A stretch of 64,000 nt of DNA from positions 201,853 through 265,852 of the forward strand of contig JACOYR010000004.1 of NCBI GenBank assembly GCA_016181765.1, in the 5' to 3' direction. This stretch comes from Parcubacteria group bacterium. Its GTDB lineage: Bacteria; Patescibacteriota; Patescibacteriia; UBA2169. Shown piece after piece: positions 5,344 to 32,956 of the stretch. The position numbers and the translations under genes are program-made. Under the pieces are notes generated by a model. The model was not told the DNA's origin. It searched no databases and saw only the letters and a list, made by a program, of their open reading frames with translations. Numbering within the stretch: position 1 is the stretch's first letter; each line of letters begins with the position of its first letter.

Positions 5344-6132
5344 TCACAGCGGGCTCTGAATCGCGGCCAGAGCAGATCGCGCCACCTTGGTGTACACCTG
5401 CGTGGTGGTAAGCCGCGCGTGGCCCAAGAGCTCCTGGATGTACCGAATGTCGGTGCCGTTCTCCAGCAAGTGCGTGGCAAACGAATGGCGCAAGCTGTGG
5501 CAGCTTGCCTGTTTTTTGATGCCCGAATCTTTGAGCGCGTGGGCAAATATCTTTTGAGCCGACCGTTCAGTCAGCTTCCCGCCGCGGCTGCTTTCAAACA
5601 CAAAATCGCGTGCGTCTTTTTTTGCAACATACCGCGCAAGCGGCGCGCTGACTTTTTCAGAAAACAAGGTAACCCGGTCTTTCCCTCCTTTGCCGCCGCG
5701 AACCATCACGGCTTGGTTATCAAAATCCAAATCCCCCACCTTGAGATTCACGGCTTCGGAAACCCGCAACCCGGCCGAGTACATCATCCCGAGCAGGAGC
5801 TTGTGCTTGGCGCTTTTGATGGTTCCGAGCAATAACCGCACTTCTTGTTTGGAGAGCACCACCGGAAGTTTTTTTGATGATTTGGCGCGCGGAATGGAAA
5901 CAAAAAATCTCCGCTTGAGCACGGAGCCAAAGTAAAACTTAAGGGCGCTGTACACGGTATTGAGTGTTGACGCGGACTTTCCCGCGTCCGCGAGCGCTTC
6001 CAGATACTTTCGGACATCAGCCGTAGTGGTTGCCCGGGGGCCTTTGCCCGCCGAGCGCAAAAAGCCTTTGACGTTCGTTATATACGAACTTTGGGTCATT
6101 GGGCTAAACCCCCGCAGTTTCATCTCCTGCAC
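5344..6132 (-). CDS. tyrosine site-specific recombinase (XerC/XerD/IntI branch)
   Basis: The C-terminal catalytic motifs HSLRHSFATHLLENGTDIRYIQELLGH…TTQVYTKV are present. The segment KKLPVVLSKQEV…GLRVSEAVNLKVGDLDFDNQAVMVRGGKGGKDR resembles XerD and IntI. At 262 aa it lacks the IntI-specific insertion. It is divergent from the adjacent AT-rich island. Confidence 0.9.
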   Translation of the reverse strand: MQEMKLRGFSPMTQSSYITNVKGFLRSAGKGPRATTTADVRKYLEALADAGKSASTLNTVYSALKFYFGSVLKRRFFVSIPRAKSSKKLPVVLSKQEVRLLLGTIKSAKHKLLLGMMYSAGLRVSEAVNLKVGDLDFDNQAVMVRGGKGGKDRVTLFSEKVSAPLARYVAKKDARDFVFESSRGGKLTERSAQKIFAHALKDSGIKKQASCHSLRHSFATHLLENGTDIRYIQELLGHARLTTTQVYTKVARSALAAIQSPL

Positions 6133-13982: not shown

Positions 13983-16712
13983 ATGCAACACAAACCATAC
14001 CTGGGCTTGATCATGGCGCTCGCGCTCGCGCTCGCATCCCCTGCCCTCGCGCAGGATGAAGCCACAACCGAGGAGGCTGCGGTGGACGCGGCCGTGCAGG
14101 AAGCAGCTGCTGAAGAAGCCGTGGACGCGGTCATTGAGGAAGTCGGGCTCTCTCCGGAAGCGCTGGAAGACGAAGTCGTCACCGAACAGGATCTGGAAGC
14201 CGAGACCCCGGGCAGGTTCCATTTCCTGACGAAAATCAAGCGCACGGTCCAGCGCACCATCACGCGCGATCCCATCAAAAAAGCCGAGTACCGCATTGAG
14301 GAGGCGCACGAGGAACTGTTGCGCGCCAAAAAGCTCGTGGAAGAGAACCCGGATGACGAGGGAGCGCAGGAGCGCGCCCAGGAAGCGCTCGGTGATTTTG
14401 AGCGCAATATAGAAAAGGTAAAAGACCAGGCAGCGGACATCAAAGAGAAAAAGGCGGACCAGGCCGGCGCGTTCTTGGAAAAAATAGCGGACTTCCAGAT
14501 CAAGCAGCAAAAAATGCTTGATAATTTGGAGGAGAAGCTTCCGGAGCAGGCCTTTGCAAAAGTGCAGGAAGCGCGCCAGCGGTCCATAGCGAACCAGTCC
14601 CAGGTCATGGCCCAGGTGGCCGAAAACCAACAGCAGATCGCAGAACGCTTCAGCGCGGCGTTTGAGAAGCAGCGCGGCAGTGAATTCCGGGACTTCAAAA
14701 ACATTGAAATGATGGAACAGATGTCCGAGTTCATTCCGGACGAAATGAAAACCGCCATTGAGCAGGCAAAAACAGAGGCCCGCGCCCGGTTTGAAACGCA
14801 GATCCAGTCCCTTTCTGGAGATGCGCGCAACCAGGGGTTCAAGCGGTACGTGGAAAACATTAGTGGAGATCCGGTCAGCCAGATGCGCGCCCTGGACAAC
14901 ATAAAATCCCAAGCCGACCTTCCGGACGAATTTTTCGCAAGCATGGAGGCCGCAAAGGAAAAAACCATCAATAAGTTTGAAGAGCGCTTCCGGAGGTTTG
15001 CGGATCCCGCAAACCGCGAAGCGTTCCTGAACGAGTTCTCAAACGGCAGCCCGGAAAATTTGCGCGCCATGCAGCAAATCCAGGAAAACGTGCCCCCGGA
15101 AATCAAGCAGGAAATAGAGCGCAAAGAAACCCAATCAATCCAGCGGTTCAAGGAGCGGTTTGTGGATGATCCGGATGCGCAGTCCCGCGCCGGCAAGTTC
15201 CAGGAGCTCGCCAAAAAAATGCGCGAAAACCCGGACCCCGCAACTTTCGCCGCCATCCAGCAGATTGAGCAGAACCTGCCCCCGGAACAGCGCGCGTTCG
15301 TAGAAGGCCTCAAGCAGGAAGCCCAGGCCGGGTTCCAAGAACAGTTCCGGCAAGACCAGGGCACGTTCCTCAAGCGCATCCAGAGCTTTGACCCGAACGC
15401 CATCCAGCAACTGCAACAGTTTGGCGGAGACGCTCCGGCAGAGTTCCAGGGGATCATCAGCCAGGCTGTAAACGGGCAAATTGATTTTACGCGCCAGCGG
15501 CTCCAGCAGTTTGACGATCCTGCAAGGTTTGAGCGGTTCAAACAGCAGATTGACCAGAACGCGGGCATCCGTCAGCAGATTGAGGCGCGGTACGCTGATT
15601 TCGGGAGCCAATTGCAGAACAAGGGCCAGGAAATAGAGGGCATCAAGCAGCAGATTGAACAGGGCTTCAGCCAGCGGATTGAACAGGAACGCCAGATGAG
15701 AACCGAGCAGGGCTTGCCTGACTTTTCGCAAGAGGAGCTTACAAACATCAAAGAGCGCTTCTTCCTGCGGCCCCAGCTCGGCATTGAACAGGGCGTGGCC
15801 GACCAGTTCCGCCAAGTGCAGGAACAACAGGTCCAGAGGGAGTTCCAAAACCAATTCCGCGAGCAAGCGGTACAGCAGGGCTTGCAGGGAGACCAGCTGA
15901 ATAATTTCCTGAAACAGCAGGGCATCAGCGAAGACGAACAGCGCTCGTTTGAGCAGGGCCCCCCGCAGGGCGGCCAGCAGTTCCGCGAGTTTCAGAATGT
16001 GCCGAGCGACATCCAGCAAAAGCTCCAGGAGCAGTTCCAGAACCGCGAGCAGGACCTCAAACAGCAGATCCAGCGCCAGGGCGCGGTTCCCCAGGAAATT
16101 CTGCAGAGGGTCCAGCAACAGCAGCAATTCCAGCAGTTCCGAGAGCAGAACCAAGGACAAAACAACCGAGAGCAAGGCGGCCAGCCTAATGAGGCCAGGA
16201 CCGAAAACAGCGGCCGCGCCATAGAAAACCAGCGCCAAGAGTCCGGGCGCTCCCTGGAGCAGCTGCGGGAAGACCTCAAGCAGAACAGCCCTTCCGGAAC
16301 CAAGATTAACGAGCAGCCGTTTGAGGATGCCAAACGCGCGGTGGAGCGCCAGGCCGAATTCCTAAAACAGCAGCAGGAAAACCAACGCGAAAGCCAGAAG
16401 CAGGAACAGCAATTCCAGCCGCCTTCTCAAAATTCTTTCCAGCCGCCCCGAACAGAGCAGCAACAACAGCCCCAGAGCTTCACCCAGCCGCAAGAGTTCA
16501 AACAGCCGGAGAACAGCGGACCATCATTCAATAGCGGCCCCTCATCTGGAGGTTCCGGGAGCTTTTCTCCCCCTCCGTCCGGCGGCAACTTCTCTTCGGG
16601 CGGCGGTGGCGGCAACACGCCGCCTCCTCCCCCGCCTTCCGGCGGCGGATCCTCAAGCGGGCCCGGCCCCTCGTCCGGCGGCGGCACTCCGCCTCCTCCC
16701 CCGCCGCAGTAA
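13983..16712 (+). CDS. secreted Gln/Glu-rich repeat protein (909 aa) with a signal peptide and a Gly/Ser/Pro-rich C-terminal tail
   Basis: The signal peptide is MALALALASPALAQD. There are about 50-aa internal repeats of the form (…DP…F…NxPPE…RF.E.F), and the protein ends …GGGGNTPPPPPPSGGGSSSGPGPSSGGGTPPPPPPQ. The antisense ORFs 13821-14912 and 13970-15568 are composition artefacts. Confidence 0.8.
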   Translation: MQHKPYLGLIMALALALASPALAQDEATTEEAAVDAAVQEAAAEEAVDAVIEEVGLSPEALEDEVVTEQDLEAETPGRFHFLTKIKRTVQRTITRDPIKKAEYRIEEAHEELLRAKKLVEENPDDEGAQERAQEALGDFERNIEKVKDQAADIKEKKADQAGAFLEKIADFQIKQQKMLDNLEEKLPEQAFAKVQEARQRSIANQSQVMAQVAENQQQIAERFSAAFEKQRGSEFRDFKNIEMMEQMSEFIPDEMKTAIEQAKTEARARFETQIQSLSGDARNQGFKRYVENISGDPVSQMRALDNIKSQADLPDEFFASMEAAKEKTINKFEERFRRFADPANREAFLNEFSNGSPENLRAMQQIQENVPPEIKQEIERKETQSIQRFKERFVDDPDAQSRAGKFQELAKKMRENPDPATFAAIQQIEQNLPPEQRAFVEGLKQEAQAGFQEQFRQDQGTFLKRIQSFDPNAIQQLQQFGGDAPAEFQGIISQAVNGQIDFTRQRLQQFDDPARFERFKQQIDQNAGIRQQIEARYADFGSQLQNKGQEIEGIKQQIEQGFSQRIEQERQMRTEQGLPDFSQEELTNIKERFFLRPQLGIEQGVADQFRQVQEQQVQREFQNQFREQAVQQGLQGDQLNNFLKQQGISEDEQRSFEQGPPQGGQQFREFQNVPSDIQQKLQEQFQNREQDLKQQIQRQGAVPQEILQRVQQQQQFQQFREQNQGQNNREQGGQPNEARTENSGRAIENQRQESGRSLEQLREDLKQNSPSGTKINEQPFEDAKRAVERQAEFLKQQQENQRESQKQEQQFQPPSQNSFQPPRTEQQQQPQSFTQPQEFKQPENSGPSFNSGPSSGGSGSFSPPPSGGNFSSGGGGGNTPPPPPPSGGGSSSGPGPSSGGGTPPPPPPQ

Positions 16713-27647: not shown

Positions 27648-28085
27648 CTAGGCGTGCTTGTCTAAAAATGTGCTGTAAGAATCGGCAAACTGCTGAAAAA
27701 CATCAGGGGCTTTCTGCAAATACGCATACACTTTTTTAAAATCAACATCTGCATACTCATGAATAAGCAAATTTCTGAATTTTGTCATATCCTTATTCTC
27801 ATTGATTATTTGTTGCGGAACAACTCCGACTTCTCCCAAAAGGCGCACAATATCAGAGTAATCTTCGGCTGATTTTTGAAAAACAGTACTCAAAATATGA
27901 TTTCCCGCATCAGTTATAATCGCAATCCCAATCGCTAAATCAAACATAGCCGCCCCGTTCAACTTTTTGTCAGCGATAAAATCCTCTTGAGTTTGCGCCT
28001 CTTCGGCATATTCCCGCAAATCACTGATGAGATCTTGCAATTTCATCAATTTTTTTTGAATTGATTTTCTATCTAGTGGGGACAT
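27648..28085 (-). CDS. hepT: HepT-like (DUF86) toxin
   Basis: The Rx4HxY motif RNLLIHEY is present. The gene is AT-rich and overlaps the 3' end of the MNT gene. The start is uncertain (ORF to 28196; Met at 28085 or 28046). Confidence 0.75.
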   Translation of the reverse strand: MSPLDRKSIQKKLMKLQDLISDLREYAEEAQTQEDFIADKKLNGAAMFDLAIGIAIITDAGNHILSTVFQKSAEDYSDIVRLLGEVGVVPQQIINENKDMTKFRNLLIHEYADVDFKKVYAYLQKAPDVFQQFADSYSTFLDKHA

Positions 28086-28536
28086 ATATTTCCGGTTTGC
28101 CAAATGTTTTATGAACCAAATGTCGGCGCATGATTTGATACTGTGTTTCGCGGATGTGGTTTGTGTCTTCGTATTCTCTCCTGATTTTTTGCTCAATCAT
28201 AAATCGCTGTTCCTCATCAGTAACATACAGCGGCTTTGCGTAAAACACGGCGCGATGTTTCAACAGCGGGCTCTTGCATGTTTCCAAATTAACCACATCA
28301 ACGCGGTCAATCTTAAACACACTCCCAATATCGGACATCATGCTCAACTCCAAATCAAACTGCTTGTCTTTTGGTACTTTCTTGGAAAAAACCACGGCAA
28401 TGTCCACATCCGACAAAGGACCGACATTACCCCTGGCGCGCGAGCCAAACAAATACGCCAGCGCAACCTTGCGCTTTTCAAAAATCGGGGCCAGTTTTTG
28501 CTTGATTTCTTCAATGGTTTTGGTCATATAATCCAA
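28069..28536 (-). CDS. mnt: MNT (minimal nucleotidyltransferase) antitoxin
   Basis: The GSxxxG…DxD motif GSRARGNVGPLSDVDIAV is present. It lies upstream of, and overlaps, hepT. Confidence 0.8.
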   Translation of the reverse strand: MDYMTKTIEEIKQKLAPIFEKRKVALAYLFGSRARGNVGPLSDVDIAVVFSKKVPKDKQFDLELSMMSDIGSVFKIDRVDVVNLETCKSPLLKHRAVFYAKPLYVTDEEQRFMIEQKIRREYEDTNHIRETQYQIMRRHLVHKTFGKPEIYVPTR

Positions 28537-28663
28537 GTTTGGATGATGATGTCAGTATAACAGATATTTTTGATGAAATAAAGGGTTGATGATGCAGTTT
28601 TTGCGCTAATGTTGGGGAAAAATAAATGATGAAATATGGCTAATTTTAGCCTATCTTGTGCTA

Positions 28664-28692
28664 TTGACATTATTTTGTAGGTGTGGTATAAT
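28664..28692 (+). promoter_or_regulatory. consensus promoter TTGACA-17-TATAAT with extended -10 TGG (TGGTATAAT)
   Basis: The + strand reads ctaTTGACAttattttgtaggtgTGGTATAATagat. Confidence 0.7.
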
Positions 28693-28731
28693 AGATACAT
28701 AATCAAAAGCCAAAAAAACCGTTCTTTGATA

Positions 28732-28781
28732 GAGGTGTTGCGATGATTGCTTAAGCCCTTGAGCCATTATCGCAACACCTC
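28732..28781 (+). repeat. leader hairpin module, copy 1 (18-bp arms gaggtgttgcgatgattg / ccattatcgcaacacctc) in the 5'UTR
   Basis: The same architecture, with covarying arm sequence, is found at 29267-29322 and 30471-30528. Confidence 0.7.
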
Positions 28782-28881
28782 GCAAAATAAGGACTGCCCG
28801 CAGAGGGCGTATGGACACATTTCCGCAATTCCGCGGAGATGGTCCCACTCAATAACGCCCGACAGGGCAGGAGAAAAAACA

Positions 28882-29142
28882 ATGCGGTACCATTGGGCAA
28901 TCATGAATGAAGACGGCCGGCCCCTGGCGTACTGCCAGGAAGACACCCACATCGTCCCGCCAGAGGGACGACACCAAGAAGTTTGCATTCGGGGGTACTT
29001 CCTCCGGAGGATCGGGAAATCCTCCAGCCGCTTCGTCCGGACCATGGACGAGGCACTGGCCCTCGTACCCGGCGGGGTGAGGTACGAAGGCTGGTACCGC
29101 GGGGCTACCTGGCCCTGCGGTGACGGCGTGCCCGACTGGTGA
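28882..29142 (+). CDS. small Cys/Trp-rich hypothetical protein (86 aa)
   Basis: An AGGAG sits 8 nt upstream of the ATG. It is the first gene downstream of the strong promoter. The ORF is open from 28747. Confidence 0.5.
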   Translation: MRYHWAIMNEDGRPLAYCQEDTHIVPPEGRHQEVCIRGYFLRRIGKSSSRFVRTMDEALALVPGGVRYEGWYRGATWPCGDGVPDW

Positions 29143-29153
29143 CCCGTCACATC

Positions 29154-29322
29154 GGCAGTCGGACGAACTCAATGCAACCAATGCAACGAGTTTCGTCCGA
29201 CTGCCACCTTTCCCTGCCCTCAACCAAAGTTGAGGTTAGAGAAAAGATTAAAACCGCTCTTTAATTGGAAGGTGTTGCTATAATGGCTTAAAGTCATTTG
29301 AGAGATTATAGCAACATCTTCC
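29154..29322 (+). repeat. intergenic module, copy 2: perfect 17-bp hairpin ggcagtcggacgaactc…gagtttcgtccgactgcc, a small hairpin ctcaac…gttgag, and the long palindrome gaaggtgttgctataat…attatagcaacatcttcc
   Basis: It is near-identical to 30367-30528. There is no U-run after the first hairpin. Confidence 0.75.
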
Positions 29323-29361
29323 GTAGTTTTCACCCACCCTCGTACACAAGGAGATAAGACA

Positions 29362-30315
29362 GTGTTCACCCGTTTCGCAGTGCTCGCAGTAGCCGCGCTC
29401 GCGGCCATCACAGGGTGCGCGGGTCCTCGGACCCTCGCGCCCTCACACGTCGCTACCGACGACGGCGACTTCAACCACCCGCTCATCGAAGAGATGCAGG
29501 GGGTTGGTGCGGGCATCGCGCCCTCGCACAAAGAGCTGGCACGCATCACGGAGCTCGCCCGCGAAGCCGAAGCGTCGCTCAAGCAGGACCCCACCACAAT
29601 AGTGACGAGCCACACCAAGACGGCGCGGTTCTCAACCGGCGCCATTGCCACGTTCGCATGGGATCTGGATACCGGCGGCGATGCGGAGCTCACCGGAAGG
29701 ATGCTCATCAGCAGCAACACGGACACGGCAAACGATGAGCGCGATAGCGTGTTCACCTCGGTGCAGATCAAAGAGATGCGGACCACCCTCTTGGACGGCA
29801 GCGGACGGAGCAGTCGCACGGTCATCATATCCGTGTGGGCCAGCCGGATCGGCTGCGAGCCGCGCGAATCCAAACAGGAGCTCGCAAAGCTCCTCAAGGG
29901 GTTCGTCGGTTACTCAAGCAGCTATGTGGATATGGCGGAAGCCAACATCCACACCATCGCGTCTTGGCTCCGCGACGGCATGCCGGCCGCGGAAAACGTC
30001 AGTGTCCGGTTCACCGAGGAGAACGAACTCCGTCAGGCAGTCACGCGCGTGGCGCGCAACTGGCACACCTCGGTCCGCCGCGACAGCGTGTTCTATCGCG
30101 TGGTGAACGAGCTCTCGCGCGACGGCACGCGGCTCGTGCTTCCGTCCCACGTCAGCGAGCTCTCCCATGACCTGGAGGAGCTCAACGTCATCAGCGTGGC
30201 GGAAGAGCAGTGGGGCGCCGATGCCTGGCGCAAGCTCATCAAGTACCACGATGAGCAGGCGTTCGCCGCCGAGAAAGAGCGGCTCCTCGCCCTGGTGGAA
30301 CGGCTGAAGGGATAG
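29362..30315 (+). CDS. lipoprotein (lipobox LAAITGC), 317 aa, hypothetical
   Basis: The GTG start has AAGGAG 8 nt upstream. The signal peptide is followed by a Cys. Confidence 0.7.
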   Translation: MFTRFAVLAVAALAAITGCAGPRTLAPSHVATDDGDFNHPLIEEMQGVGAGIAPSHKELARITELAREAEASLKQDPTTIVTSHTKTARFSTGAIATFAWDLDTGGDAELTGRMLISSNTDTANDERDSVFTSVQIKEMRTTLLDGSGRSSRTVIISVWASRIGCEPRESKQELAKLLKGFVGYSSSYVDMAEANIHTIASWLRDGMPAAENVSVRFTEENELRQAVTRVARNWHTSVRRDSVFYRVVNELSRDGTRLVLPSHVSELSHDLEELNVISVAEEQWGADAWRKLIKYHDEQAFAAEKERLLALVERLKG

Positions 30316-30366
30316 CCGAACCACCACCCCCCCCCCGCTCCCGCGACCGCGCAGCAGTAGCGCACC

Positions 30367-30528
30367 GGCAGTCGGACGAACTCAAACCAACGAGTTTCGT
30401 CCGACTGCCACTATTCCCTGCCCTCAACGAAAGTTGAGGTTAGAGAAAAGATTAAAACCGCTCTTTTATCCGAAGGTGTTGCTATAATGACTTAACAAAT
30501 TGTTTGAGAGATTATAGCAACACCTTCG
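30367..30528 (+). repeat. intergenic module, copy 3 (same two hairpins plus the palindrome cgaaggtgttgctataat…attatagcaacaccttcg)
   Basis: It is a direct repeat of copy 2 and is preceded by a C10 homopolymer at 30327-30336. Confidence 0.75.
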
Positions 30529-30564
30529 TAGTATTCACCCCACCCTCCCACAAGGAGAAAACAG

Positions 30565-31158
30565 ATGTACCGATTCCGCTTCATCCTCGCGCTCGTGGCC
30601 GCCATGGCCATCGCAGTCGTGGCCTGCAGAGACAAGGCCGTGACCACGCTCAACGACATCGTCACCGACACGGTGATTGAGGTCGCCGTTGCCTCCCTCG
30701 CCCAGGACATCAAGGCGGGAGACGCGGGAAACTGGTCGTACGCCGACTCGTACGGCCCGACCTGGACCGCGAACACAAAGGCCCGGCACGCAATCTTCGC
30801 CGATCACCTCGGTGAGGATTGGTTCGACCTCGTGTACGACAACAAGACCGACTACCGGGAGCGGGCTATGCGCATCGCCCGCGAATCCCTGGACACGCCC
30901 GAGGAGCTGTGGGCCGCGTACCTTCGCCACAAGGCGAAGGTCATCGCCGAGATCCGAAAGCACGGCATCCAGGACGATGTCGTCAGATACTCAACCGCCG
31001 CCCTGCCCTACTTCTCGCCGCCGGGCGGCGAAGAGCTCACCGACCCCCACGGCGACCACGGAGCCAAGGAGTGGGCCGAACGTCGGCGAACCGAAGGCGG
31101 CGACGCCCTAGTCGTTGCCTGGGGCGAGGTCATCGCAGATCTCGCCAGTTCACTGTAG
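30565..31158 (+). CDS. lipoprotein (lipobox AVVAC), 197 aa, hypothetical
   Basis: The ATG has AAGGAGA upstream, and a signal peptide is present. Confidence 0.7.
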   Translation: MYRFRFILALVAAMAIAVVACRDKAVTTLNDIVTDTVIEVAVASLAQDIKAGDAGNWSYADSYGPTWTANTKARHAIFADHLGEDWFDLVYDNKTDYRERAMRIARESLDTPEELWAAYLRHKAKVIAEIRKHGIQDDVVRYSTAALPYFSPPGGEELTDPHGDHGAKEWAERRRTEGGDALVVAWGEVIADLASSL

Positions 31159-31188
31159 TCGCCCGCCCCCAACGGCGGCCGCATCATC

Positions 31189-31236
31189 GGCCCGCTGCCA
31201 AGCTAGAAGTTATAGCAAGGCAGCGGGTCTTTTTTT
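31189..31236 (+). terminator. rho-independent terminator (stem ggcccgctgcc/ggcagcgggtc, 19-nt loop, T7 run). Its loop-to-T-run part is duplicated at 32384-32422
   Basis: The structure was read from the sequence. Confidence 0.75.
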
Positions 31237-31246
31237 ATGCGCGGGC

Positions 31247-32335
31247 TTATTTCACCGCATAATTTTTCGCGGCAAACACGTACTGCTCTATGAAGATAGC
31301 CTTAAATGGAATAATTGAATTAACCTCGTAAAACACGAGGGTCGCTTCGCGGTAGTCTTTCTCCTTTACGCTCCGATAGGATAGAGGCGCGCAGTTGTGC
31401 GCCAGCAATATCGCGTTTGCCATAATGCGCGCGGTGCGCTTATTGCCGTCATTAAACGGCTGAATGTAGCTGATGCCGAGCAAGGCCAAGAGGGCTTTGG
31501 CATAGGGGGTTTTCGCCCTTGCCATGGCGGCCGCCAGCGCCTCTACCGCCTCTCTAATCTGATGCGCGTTGTCCAGCGGCCGATACTTGGAACCGGTTAC
31601 GCCGACCGGTTTTTGGCGCAATCCCGCGCCCACGCTTAAATCTTTCACTACCATGCCATGCAGTTGTTCAAGATTAGGGCGCGTCAGAACGCGAAACTCT
31701 TTCTTATGTTCGTACACAAACTCAAACGCGTCCTTGTGATTGAGAATCATGCGGGCTTCTTTTTTATCATGCCCAAGAGCTTCCTTGCGCTCTAAAATAA
31801 GCTTCTCCGTGTCAAGAAGCGTATACGTATTCCCCTCAATCTTTGATGATTTCCAGGACAGTTCTATGATGAGCCGTTCTAATTCTTTCTTTTGAATGGC
31901 CCGCGGTAACCGCGCCGTCCGCGCATGATATTCGTCGGTTGCCTTTTCAAGAGCGGCTTGTTCGGCCGGAGTGAAGATATCGGAGAGGAACGACGGCAGC
32001 AGATCAAAATTAAAACGCGCGAGCCCAAAGCGCTCGTCCGGTTCCGTGGCGCAGTAACGGTTCGCGTCCACCTCGCTCCAGATGCGCCCTAAAACGCTGA
32101 TGCCGTACGCGCGCGACCGGCCGCGGCCAAAAGCGGCCAAAAGCCCCGCCGCGGCCATGCGGGATAGTTCTCGCTTAATGGTTACCAGCGAGGTTTCTTG
32201 GCCTTCTCTGGCCAGGCGGCTGTGAACCTCTGAAGAACTTATGAAATCTTGGCGTAGAAATAAATCCAGTATTTTTTGCTGCTTTGAACTGATTATGGTC
32301 ATAATCGTATCATTTATACTAATTAATCGTATCAA
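31247..32335 (-). CDS. HTH-Fic family protein with a degenerate Fic motif (QPFNDGNKRTAR instead of HPFx[D/E]GNGR)
   Basis: An N-terminal winged HTH is followed by a Fic fold. The catalytic His is replaced by Gln and the second Gly by Lys. Confidence 0.75.
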   Translation of the reverse strand: MIRLISINDTIMTIISSKQQKILDLFLRQDFISSSEVHSRLAREGQETSLVTIKRELSRMAAAGLLAAFGRGRSRAYGISVLGRIWSEVDANRYCATEPDERFGLARFNFDLLPSFLSDIFTPAEQAALEKATDEYHARTARLPRAIQKKELERLIIELSWKSSKIEGNTYTLLDTEKLILERKEALGHDKKEARMILNHKDAFEFVYEHKKEFRVLTRPNLEQLHGMVVKDLSVGAGLRQKPVGVTGSKYRPLDNAHQIREAVEALAAAMARAKTPYAKALLALLGISYIQPFNDGNKRTARIMANAILLAHNCAPLSYRSVKEKDYREATLVFYEVNSIIPFKAIFIEQYVFAAKNYAVK

Positions 32336-32383
32336 AATGATACGATTATGTCAAACATATCGCCCGTAACCACTCACAATGGT

Positions 32384-32422
32384 AAGCTAGAAGTTATAGC
32401 AAGGTAGCGGGCCATTTTTTTT
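32384..32422 (+). repeat. direct repeat of 31200-31236 (aagctagaagttatagcaagg[c/t]agcggg…ttttttt) lacking the left stem arm
   Basis: About 34 of 37 positions are identical. Together with 31200-31236 it brackets the HTH-Fic gene. Confidence 0.7.
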
Positions 32423-32473
32423 GACTAAAATAGCTTGTAGTGTTAATCTAGTAGTATAGAGAATCCAATACAT

Positions 32474-32680
32474 ATGGAAACAGCAACAATGCCTAAAAAA
32501 ATAAGCTCCGCATCATTACACGAGCTTAAACCGTTTATTGTGCAGACAATTTCCGAAGTCTTGAACGACCCTGATTTTGGTTTAGAGCTAAGCGATCGGG
32601 CGCAGGCAAGGCTGCGGCAATCCAGAGAATCTTCGGATAAAACAATCTCGTTCAATGATGTCAAAAGAAAGTATCATTAA
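32474..32680 (+). CDS. putative antitoxin (68 aa) of the ParE-like toxin
   Basis: It is a small ORF 7 bp upstream of a ParE/RelE-family gene, in an AT-rich islet. The family is not recognised. Confidence 0.5.
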   Translation: METATMPKKISSASLHELKPFIVQTISEVLNDPDFGLELSDRAQARLRQSRESSDKTISFNDVKRKYH

Positions 32681-32686
32681 ACCCAT

Positions 32687-32956
32687 ATGGGGGAATGGGA
32701 GTTGGAATTTTCCGTTGCGGCCGAGGATGACCTCGCCGCGCTTGATAACGAACTGCGGCAGAGAATCATCAATAAGCTTGATTGGTTTTTGGAAAATTTT
32801 GATTCGCTTTCTCCTGAATCATTAACCGGCGAGTACAGGGAATTTTATAAATTGAGAGCGGGCCAGTGGAGAATATTCTATAAGGTCAACTGGCAACAAA
32901 AGACAATCACGGTCCACTATATTGACCCGAGAGACAAAGCGTACAGGAAAAGATAG
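32687..32956 (+). CDS. ParE/RelE-superfamily type II toxin
   Basis: The C-terminus …LRAGQWRIFYKVNWQQKTITVHYIDPRDKAY is characteristic of RelE/ParE. Confidence 0.75.
   Translation: MGEWELEFSVAAEDDLAALDNELRQRIINKLDWFLENFDSLSPESLTGEYREFYKLRAGQWRIFYKVNWQQKTITVHYIDPRDKAYRKR

Follow-up and report, generated by a model that had tools for sequence, protein, structure and literature searches.

A covarying hairpin module between the genes of an orphan secreted-protein operon in a Parcubacteria group bacterium

We analysed 64,000 nucleotides of the chromosome of an uncultured Parcubacteria group bacterium from groundwater (assembly GCA_016181765.1, contig JACOYR010000004.1, positions 201,853 to 265,852; hereafter the window) and found that the genes of one operon in it, between window positions 28,664 and 31,236, are parted by a structured module. 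The module is a real, non-random and evolutionarily conserved element. It has up to three parts: H1, a GC-rich hairpin just past a stop codon; H2, an interrupted hairpin with constant flanks; and H3, a long palindromic hairpin ahead of a gene. Copies from related genomes indicate that H1-H2 is the widespread, strongly covarying core of the module, and that H3 is a lineage-restricted accessory hairpin. An earlier note, made from the sequence alone, had proposed a structured and repeated intercistronic module in an operon of secreted proteins, and this is supported by our results. The note had put the palindromic leader of each gene foremost; the widespread covarying unit is H1-H2 instead.

We tentatively propose that the modules are lineage-specific RNA hairpins of the sense strand, which punctuate one polycistronic mRNA and process, stabilise or insulate its cistrons, and which also provide homology for the shuffling of the genes between them.

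Structure and conservation of the module

Eight hairpins of the window have arms that pair perfectly over 12 bp or more, around loops of 3–30 nt. Five of them are in the operon, and ten first-order Markov randomisations gave none of that class. The fold z-scores of the three leaders were -9.5, -11.3 and -11.7. The repeats are not an assembly artefact, as the stretch 29233-30459 recurs without a difference in Logan contigs of three further sequencing runs. The whole window matched none of the 4227 Rfam models at gathering thresholds, and a search with 28600-31300 at E values up to 5 returned only miRNA- and snoRNA-like noise (18–26 bits versus thresholds of 40–98). The module was not found described in Rfam or in the literature searched.

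Related loci, numbered here with the prefix L, were collected by pattern and by anchor genes. Among species-representative genomes, the palindrome pattern of H3 gave a sole true relative (L012, a 2.2-kb contig). The other nine of the ten matches in the genome collection were rejected as chance, three of them lying in a conserved coding stretch for GPGGVAI..LTDNRNK. The same pattern found L014 and L015 in Joint Genome Institute (JGI) metagenomes and had no match in viral contigs. Further contigs were found with the Na/Ca exchanger and gene 3 of the operon as anchors.

The stem of H1 is made of 14 perfect base pairs, a one-nucleotide U bulge and 3 more base pairs (coordinates of all features are in Table 1). 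The earlier note was right that the arms are identical in both copies and that no U-run follows, and wrong in describing a perfect 17-bp stem. It had also seen a small ctcaac/gttgag hairpin in the same intergenic regions. This hairpin is real (CCCTCAAC-N4-GTTGAGG) and is embedded in a longer interrupted helix, UUUCCCUG...UAGAGAAA, which we call H2. Over 113 nt (29179-29291 versus 30383-30495), the internal intergenic regions share 92% identity.

We built a covariance model of H1-H2 from seven copies and found 14 copies in ten loci with it. Standard pairs fill 96.3% of the cells in the 14 copies, a share that is inflated, like the G.U counts given below, because the model fitted the alignment to the structure. 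No fewer than 25 of the 29 pairs have changed on both sides, in 62 cells; none of 500 shuffles reached any of these measures, and slid partners gave at most 8 such pairs. In distant relatives, the inner stems are wholly replaced and the flanks TTTCCCT and AGAGAAAAG are kept: the stems read GGCGGTTGTTGCATGACAT/ATGTTGTGCGACAACCGCC and then CTCTGGA/TCCAGAG in L024, and GGCGGTCGTACGA/TCGTGCGACCGCC and then TCTGAA/TTCAGA in L026. The arms of H1 start with GGCAGTCGG, GGCGGT, GGTCGGG or GTCAGGC, depending on the copy. With filters off, the model found two copies only in the window, at 112–116 bits on the sense strand versus 21 bits or less on the antisense strand. The H2 pattern CCCTCAACNNAAGTTGAGGTTAGAG gave no match in metagenome and viral collections; the inner stem that it includes proved to be variable. 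We also considered GGCAGTCGG as a DNA uptake sequence and rejected it, because four of its five occurrences in 64 kb make up the two H1 hairpins.

H3 stands before each of the three genes, where the earlier note had placed its palindromes. The loop is 4–8 nt rather than the 20 nt or so first described, since the 2x2 internal loop is followed by an inner CUUAA/UUGAG stem. The arms are 24–26 nt long and 85–88% complementary, with perfect cores of 13, 12 and 18 bp in copies 1 to 3, and the hairpins (18 bp, 2x2 loop, 5–6 bp) fold with -27 to -34 kcal/mol. Copy 2 carries TGCTATAAT in its left arm and the complement in its right arm. The half-site GGTGTTGCNATNAT has six matches in the window versus 0.3 expected, all of them within the three H3 palindromes.

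We aligned seven H3 copies, three from the window and one each from L012, L014, L015 and L016. In this alignment 93.9% of the cells are paired and 5 of the 21 pairs are compensatory, a result that 1 of 500 shuffles reached. The gcgat/atcgc versus gctat/atagc difference, on which the idea of covarying arms had been founded, is a genuine compensatory change (columns 17/50 of the alignment), and two compensatory variant types coexist in the genome of the window. In the H3 of L016 (GAAGGTGGCGCTGTAAT...ATTACAGCACCACCTTC) two pairs are altered on both sides, one of them destroying TATAAT, and an inner U.G pair has become C-G. The loops are conserved in neither sequence nor length and the half-sites lie 18–22 nt apart; a spacer this variable would suit a hairpin, not a rigid dimer site. 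Inversion of the loop was considered and rejected: in every copy the asymmetric inner stem CTTAA/TTGAG points the same way.

Thus, across genomes the stems of both H3 (5 of 21 pairs compensatory) and H1-H2 (25 of 29) are kept as structure and not as sequence. The earlier note had allowed that the modules might prove to be recent identical duplicates with no further covariation; they are not, because the copies in other genomes add compensatory changes in both parts.

The distribution of H3 is narrow. Outside the window it is known in four related genomes only (L012, L014, L015 and L016). Leaders behind the same promoter in L026 and L028 are without H3 and keep the other promoter-proximal boxes, and a palindrome-free leader, in which AAAC(A/C)NCGC is joined to ACCT(T)C, stands at internal junctions of L012b, L023, L016, L019 and L029. 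The first leader of the window has the order AAAACCGCTCTTT, H3, CACCCACCC, Shine-Dalgarno site. The internal H3-bearing leaders look like copies of this first leader set behind H2. A further small hairpin, tentatively called H2b, contains the segment AAAAC(C/G)G(C/T)TCTTT, which is conserved in all type-A leaders; between copies its stem runs through the series U-A / U.G / C-G (judged by eye, without statistics).

RNA hairpin or DNA element

We next consider the strand on which the module acts. All modules are co-oriented with the genes, and they occupy inferred transcribed positions only: they follow stop codons, they precede ribosome-binding sites and, in one case, the module lies in the 5' untranslated region (UTR) of a first gene. 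Cells with G.U pairs outnumber those with A.C by 31 versus 6 in H1-H2 and by 8 versus 3 in H3, and six of the seven H3 copies fold more stably as the sense strand. Module-bearing intergenic regions without H3 show no sigma-70-like promoter (inspected by eye, unscanned).

If the modules act as RNA, one strong conserved promoter would give a polycistronic mRNA of three genes. Each stop codon would be followed by H1, a GC-rich hairpin of 17–20 bp, then by H2 with its invariant pyrimidine-rich 5' and purine-rich 3' flanks, then by an A-rich linker and, in the sub-lineage of the window, by H3 about 35–45 nt upstream of the next ribosome-binding site. Through the module, each cistron would behave as a message of its own, discrete and stable. 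The upstream cistron would have its 3' end defined or protected by H1, which may also attenuate read-through, and the downstream cistron would have its 5' end capped or insulated by H3. The mRNA would be cut within the module or next to it, at the A-rich linker or inside the H3 helix of ~25 bp, whose geometry is that of an RNase III substrate. Such sites consist of at least ~20 bp of coaxial double-stranded RNA within a transcript, often with an internal loop. H3 (18 bp plus 5–6 bp) has this geometry and, by analogy, may be a processing site; H1 measures 17–20 bp. The invariance of the H2 flanks suggests a sequence-specific partner. The modules would also be portable homology, along which unrelated secreted-protein genes could be swapped, added and lost between related genomes. 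With every gene flanked by the same 100–200 nt, this turnover is most simply explained by homologous recombination between modules, which could follow DNA uptake.

Several points weigh against this proposal. The roles in processing and stabilisation are argued by analogy, and the pairing and G.U counts of H1-H2 carry the inflation mentioned above. On the antisense strand, the fold is slightly better for the H3 of L016 and for several copies of H1 and H2. Template-switch (quasipalindrome) mutation can make compensatory changes in a palindrome in one step, without selection on an RNA. A perfect extended -10 (TGCTATAAT) is present on each strand of the internal H3 copies, which may thus have a promoter role at the DNA level. 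In L024, H1-H2 sits in the 5' UTR of the first gene, between promoter and gene; protection of the 3' end of an upstream cistron therefore cannot apply there. Lastly, H3 is missing from the orthologous leaders of L026 and L028 and from many internal junctions, and is therefore dispensable for the operon family. As to H1-H2, the size of the effect and the full turnover of the stems between invariant flanks make a conserved structure hard to avoid.

H3 could instead be a palindromic DNA insertion, either similar to Correia elements or miniature inverted-repeat transposable elements (MITEs) or a self-perpetuating quasipalindrome, that supplies extended -10 promoters and forms an RNA hairpin only incidentally. 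It would have spread from the first leader into internal junctions and given each downstream cassette its own start. We consider this rather doubtful. H3 is cleanly present or absent in homologous leaders, between AAAACCGC and ACCTTC (L012a versus L012b and L023; the first leaders of L016 versus L026), but these filled and empty sites show no target-site duplication or terminal signature. Nor are there dispersed copies as expected of a MITE or a Correia-like element: the three copies in 64 kb are all in this operon, and no locus has one outside such leaders. All four internal H3 copies have a perfect TGnTATAAT in both arms, and the copies behind the strong promoter lack it (GCGATGAT in the window, GCTGTAAT in L016); the internal copies are closely related, however, and this correlation rests on about two independent lineages. 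A promoter-like site of the antisense strand, GTGAAA-17-TATAAT, scores 10/12, whereas the sense strand of H3 has no -35, so that the promoter scan calls no sense promoter. The non-Watson-Crick pairs of H3 are mostly sense-strand G.U, which also counts against this reading. Correia elements are a precedent: they are able to generate promoters, and RNase III can bind or cut them (PMC2649163).

Alternatively, H1 could be a leaky intrinsic terminator or attenuator that grades expression along the array, with H2 and H3 modulating read-through or re-initiation. Its 17–20-bp GC-rich stem comes right after stop codons and precedes a weak U-containing tract (ACCUUUCCCU in the window, AGUUUUCCUU in L028), and array ends in this organism do use canonical hairpin-plus-U terminators. 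However, the first three residues past the H1 stem are not U, the terminator scan does not call H1, and the UUUCCC tract forms the 5' side of the H2 helix. The position of H1-H2 in L024, ahead of the first gene, does not fit an attenuator between genes either. This explanation thus appears unlikely. As an ordinary intrinsic terminator H1 was rejected: its tail ACCUUUCCCU has no U-run, and the true terminator of the array (31191-31236) has a T-run.

A last possibility, already raised in the earlier note, is that a dimeric DNA-binding regulator recognises GGTGTTGC...GCAACACC and has H3 as its operator. The symmetry of the palindrome and its location, downstream of the promoter (copy 1) or over a -10-like element (copies 2 and 3), would suit an operator. 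We find it very improbable nonetheless. The half-sites are 18–22 nt apart (46–50 nt in total span), a spacing that varies by 4 bp, and the arms of 24–26 nt far exceed typical half-sites. Symmetric double changes coexist in one genome, and a single regulator would not require them. H3 is missing at orthologous promoters that keep all other promoter-proximal boxes, and no regulator gene is conserved beside the arrays. Moreover, a separate conserved 14-bp palindrome, GGCTAAnnTTAGCC/GGCTAATTTTAGCC, lies upstream of the -35 and appears to be the better candidate for a DNA operator. It has one exact site in the 64-kb window (scored once per strand, being palindromic) and is kept 12–14 nt upstream of the -35 in every homologous operon promoter, namely those of L016, L024, L026 (two operons) and L028. 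We consider it a likely candidate for the binding site of a regulator of the operon family. Further upstream of this box is another conserved box, TTGGGGAAAAAT.

Gene turnover at the locus and comparison with known systems

Homologous modules are present in about ten other contigs of related candidate-phyla-radiation genomes, at a locus between gyrB and the Na/Ca exchanger and pheST genes. The order in L016 matches that of the window: gyrB, HepT/MNT, promoter, array, terminator, Na/Ca exchanger, pheST. In more distant relatives (~70% identity of the exchanger) a different operon occupies the place, with genes for small secreted proteins, a subtilisin-like peptidase and VKOR. Related genomes have different genes between their modules; the locus is therefore a shuffling cassette array. 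Eight of the flanked open reading frames (ORFs), taken from the window, L012 and L014/L015, are mutually unrelated (best E value 0.17), and signal or lipoprotein N-termini are present in six of them. We looked for paralogy among the cassette proteins and rejected it (none at E below 0.1). Gene 3 is the only gene of the window operon with homologues in other loci: it stands at the end of the array in the window, L016, L019 and L029, and at the start in L028. In L031/L032 it is preceded by an H1-H2 module and a gene for a protein of 139 amino acids, and followed by another gene.

Comparison of the window with L016 reveals a mosaic. H1 (29153-29220) is identical at 68/68 positions, including the 17-nt loop, and the ORFs upstream of it are unrelated; gyrB, the exchanger gene, pheT and gene 3 have 73–83% DNA identity. 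Identical H1 amid diverged genes indicates, from the pattern of identities, recent exchange or conversion with breakpoints probably at the module edges.

Three side observations concern the arrays. Unrelated cassette proteins share the first codons of their signal peptides, ATG TAC CG., or MYR(F/R); the conserved block therefore reaches a few codons into the ORFs. An extremely basic protein of ~50 amino acids (MG[LIF]M.RL.G...KKRKRK...) recurs inside the arrays of three relatives and is absent from the window. A second operon, on the minus strand of L026 (1-1960), carries a promoter of the same type and two hairpins in every one of its three intergenic regions, so that the punctuation extends beyond the gyrB-proximal locus.

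The turnover raises the question whether the modules are recombination sites, active as folded single-stranded DNA or cruciforms in the manner of attC or Xer/dif, with a recombinase encoded elsewhere moving the secreted-protein genes. The arrays are like those of integrons and of clusters of attC sites lacking an integrase (CALINs): unrelated, mostly orphan ORFs, often for secreted proteins, stand in one orientation behind one promoter, parted by the same imperfect palindromes, at a syntenic hypervariable locus near toxin-antitoxin genes. Gene order is shuffled among genomes, the breakpoints of homology coincide exactly with the 5' edge of H1 or lie within H2, and repeated terminator elements bracket the Fic gene in the window and the MNT-HepT pair in L016. 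The bulged base of H1 is like the extrahelical bases of attC, and the H2 of the window resembles an R''/R' pair (CCTCAAC/GTTGAGG, 6/7 positions of RYYYAAC/GTTRRRY). However, R'' and R' are expected 57–141 bp apart, and here the two boxes are just 4 nt apart; the AAC...GTT core is not kept, other copies having GAC..GTC, GGA..TCC or GAA..TTC; and there are no L boxes. Conservation fills the whole intergenic region, from the stop codon and H1 through the leader with its ribosome-binding site to the first signal-peptide codons, unlike attC-bounded cassettes and their cassette-specific 5' leaders. No integrase adjoins any array (the neighbours in the window are gyrB, HepT/MNT, Fic, RelE-like and STAS genes), which is not decisive alone, as CALINs exist. 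Finally, strict co-orientation with transcription and sense-strand G.U pairs fit RNA better. We therefore hold recombination sites of this kind to be improbable.

The only recombinase found in the window is a tyrosine recombinase of 262 amino acids, Xer-like, encoded 23 kb away from the array (5344-6132, minus strand). It scored best with the archaeal XerA model NF040815 (229.8 bits versus a cutoff of 220) and was below the cutoffs for XerC and XerD, for the integron-integrase model TIGR02249 (211.6 versus 265) and for NF011946 (158 versus 435).

We give a still lower rating, as a quite unlikely case, to the view that H1-H2(-H3) is the recognition site of an undescribed cassette-exchange system of candidate-phyla-radiation bacteria, without IntI/attC. 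The folded hairpin with its invariant TTTCCCT/AGAGAAAAG would be read by a recombinase or nuclease encoded elsewhere, and the outcome would be integron-like, at a fixed chromosomal locus and with promoterless genes.

Highly conserved 5' UTRs and signal-peptide starts joined to unrelated mature parts are also known from clustered lipoprotein genes, at the variable surface-lipoprotein loci vsp, vlp, vsa and mpl of Mycoplasma, and the MYR(F/R) starts are the counterpart here. Those loci vary within one genome, by site-specific inversion or by slippage of promoter tracts. In contrast, we saw no inversions, adjacent recombinase or promoter tract, and the variation is between genomes.

Returning to RNA hairpins, the module is best classed among intercistronic mRNA hairpin elements, as a new variant in a hypervariable operon of secreted orphans. 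By analogy it would work most like the RNase III hairpins of T7 and lambda, the palindromes of the REP (repetitive extragenic palindromic) and BIME (bacterial interspersed mosaic element) families and, for H3, Correia elements, but it is a member of none of them. The polycistronic mRNAs of T7 and lambda have intercistronic RNase III processing hairpins. Like these, the module offers about two helical turns and an internal loop between cistrons behind a strong promoter, and a stabilising hairpin is expected at the new ends. Unlike these, it is a chromosomal module that flanks variable genes, a bi- or tripartite unit with invariant TTTCCCT and AGAGAAAAG and no sequence or family relation to the phage hairpins; cleavage is assumed here by analogy.

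The module also resembles the REP/BIME and ERIC (enterobacterial repetitive intergenic consensus) elements of enterobacteria. These imperfect palindromes lie between the genes of operons, where they are transcribed, and can stabilise mRNA segments upstream of them or act as substrates for recombination. REPs have hundreds of copies across the genome in both orientations, a GTAG/CGTC head and linked RAYT transposases (PMC3733652). We rejected membership of REP/BIME: in the 64-kb window H1-H2 occurs twice and H3 three times, always in this one operon and in the same direction, the arms of H1 have no GTAG/CGTC head, and no transposase was among the ORFs scanned.

Correia elements (Correia repeat enclosed elements, CREE) of Neisseria can give rise to promoters at their ends, and they can form RNA hairpins that RNase III binds or cuts (PMC2649163). 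H3 is like them in its inverted repeats upstream of genes, its -10-like ends and its presence or absence as an insertion in leaders. CREE measure 100–155 bp, with an IHF site and a core, cause duplication of a TA target and reach hundreds per genome; H3, unlike them, is 50–58 nt long, is without core or visible target duplication and is found in this operon family only.

The operon and its surroundings

The operon is bounded by one promoter and one clear terminator, from which we infer that its three genes are transcribed as one unit. The perfect promoter, the small Cys protein and the two lipoproteins that the earlier note had read from the sequence are all present, with 12/12 consensus positions in the promoter, 86 amino acids and 3 Cys in the first protein and lipoboxes ITGC and VVAC in the others. 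In relatives the promoter is conserved as TTGAC(A/T/G)-17-(TGG)TATAAT. All three ORFs (28882, 29362 and 30565) have good Shine-Dalgarno sites.

Table 1. Features of the operon and of related loci (window positions unless a locus is named)
Feature	Position	Strand	Remarks
Palindromic 14-bp box GGCTAATTTTAGCC, candidate operator/activator site	28638..28651	.	12 nt upstream of -35
The same box in relatives	L016 ~14925-14940; L026 ~15775 and ~1880; L024 ~16165; L028 ~22-35	minus (L016)	
Sigma-70 consensus promoter	28664..28692	+	TTGACA-17-TATAAT with TG extension; 12/12 positions match
H2b in leader, small A/U-rich hairpin	28702..28730	+	AUCAAAAG...CUUUGAU, loop with CCGUUC; tentative
H3 copy 1	28732..28781	+	two 24-nt arms 2 nt apart, -33.8 kcal/mol; precedes gene 1
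Extra nested leader structure of gene 1	28794..28870	+	77 nt, -44 kcal/mol, z = -5.85
Gene 1	28882..29142	+	86 amino acids, 3 Cys, without signal peptide; matches no family
H1 copy a, GC-rich hairpin just past stop codon	29154..29205	+	14 bp, U bulge, 3 bp; no U-run
H2 copy a, interrupted hairpin	29207..29246	+	flanks CYTTTCCCT...TAGAGAAAAG, inner stem variable
H2b copy 2	29246..29266	+	GAUUAAA-ACCGCUC-UUUAAUU; tentative, from fold and conserved segment
H3 copy 2	29267..29322	+	18 bp, 2x2 internal loop, 6 bp, one G.U; precedes gene 2
Gene 2, predicted lipoprotein	29362..30315	+	317 amino acids, GTG start, lipobox ITGC; orphan
C10 homopolymer	30327..30336	+	3' UTR of gene 2
H1 copy b	30367..30409	+	arms as in copy a, loop shorter
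H2 copy b	30411..30450	+	
H3 copy 3	30471..30528	+	perfect 18-bp arms, longest perfect hairpin of the window; precedes gene 3
Gene 3, predicted lipoprotein	30565..31158	+	197 amino acids, lipobox VVAC; all-helical small lineage-specific family
Intrinsic terminator	31191..31236	+	hairpin CCCGCTGCC...GGCAGCGGG then T-run, conserved loop AAGCTAGAAGTTATAGCAAGG; end of array
MYR(F/R) starts	window 30565; L012 1491; L023 ~5542; L016 ~13875; L019 ~9303		
Basic-protein gene	L016 13902-14054; L019 9348-9500; L023 5570-5719	minus	always behind palindrome-free leader

Searches of Pfam, NCBIfam, PADLOC and PHROGs with the three operon proteins gave no family match. The protein of gene 2 (HYT31_03660) matched only itself among 5.8 billion proteins; the gene is present in sequencing runs SRR12113422-430. 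Gene 3, which has homologues in L016 and L019, has ten close homologues and belongs to a family with fifty representatives among 1.84 billion proteins; its structure model (predicted local distance difference test, pLDDT, 72.6) had no fold match in the PDB with E below 1.5. The extra structure in the leader of gene 1 had no Rfam match and no homologue in the other loci examined. Its 3' strand abuts the Shine-Dalgarno sequence, and it could be a gene-specific translational control element. The C10 tract that the earlier note reported after the middle gene was found in its place, and length variation, for which we looked, was not: the run has the same length in both other assemblies that span it (Logan contigs), and the third Logan contig ends a few bases short of it.

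Terminators homologous to that of the window operon close the arrays of L014, L016, L019, L023 and L029. The terminator element with AAGCTAGAAGTTATAGCAAGG occurs twice in the window in direct orientation (31191-31236 and 32381-32425, the latter with a degenerate left arm), and the two copies bracket the minus-strand Fic gene; in L016, two terminators of the AAGCTAGAAGTTATAGCAAGG type bracket the MNT-HepT pair. This bracketing suggests that toxin-type genes were inserted at shared terminators. At the Fic gene, a perfect 16-bp inverted repeat, CATAATCGTATCATTT...AAATGATACGATTATG (32300-32350), overlaps both the gene start and the promoter region. This repeat is a possible autoregulatory operator; the encoded protein is winged-helix-like in its N-terminal region.

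The window is ordinary chromosome, with thyA, dut-tmk, dcd, rplA, rplK, nusG, gyrB, pheST, the ATP synthase operon, tRNA synthetase genes and tgt. On one side the operon is flanked by gyrB and the HepT/MNT toxin-antitoxin pair; on the other by the Fic gene, a RelE-like pair, a STAS gene, a gene for 332 amino acids of no known function, the Na/Ca exchanger gene and pheST. The toxin-antitoxin genes on both sides of the array are AT-rich (HepT/MNT at 27648-28536, 38–44% GC; RelE-like at 32474-32956, 45% GC) compared with ~54% GC for the genome, and the locus is a hotspot for foreign insertions. We rejected the array itself as a foreign compositional island: the cassette genes have 64–65% GC versus 54–59% for housekeeping genes, and the toxin-antitoxin genes alone are clearly atypical (38–45%). 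The gap between cassette and housekeeping genes is too small, so that transfer from a high-GC donor cannot be argued.

Bacteria of the candidate phyla radiation are uncultured, host-dependent and rich in proteins of unknown function, and to our knowledge almost nothing has been established about how they control and diversify their surface and secreted proteins. To RNA biologists, a strongly covarying RNA motif outside Rfam would be a new class of cis-acting RNA and, if the hairpins insulate cistrons, a natural counterpart of the RNA-processing insulators used in synthetic operons. To those who study the candidate phyla radiation, a motif that marks every gene boundary in operons of orphan secreted proteins is a practical marker for such loci, and the same modules with different genes at a syntenic locus offer a simple, testable route for shuffling the secretome. 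If the cassette-exchange view is true, it is by such a system that these host-dependent bacteria would diversify their surface and secreted repertoire.

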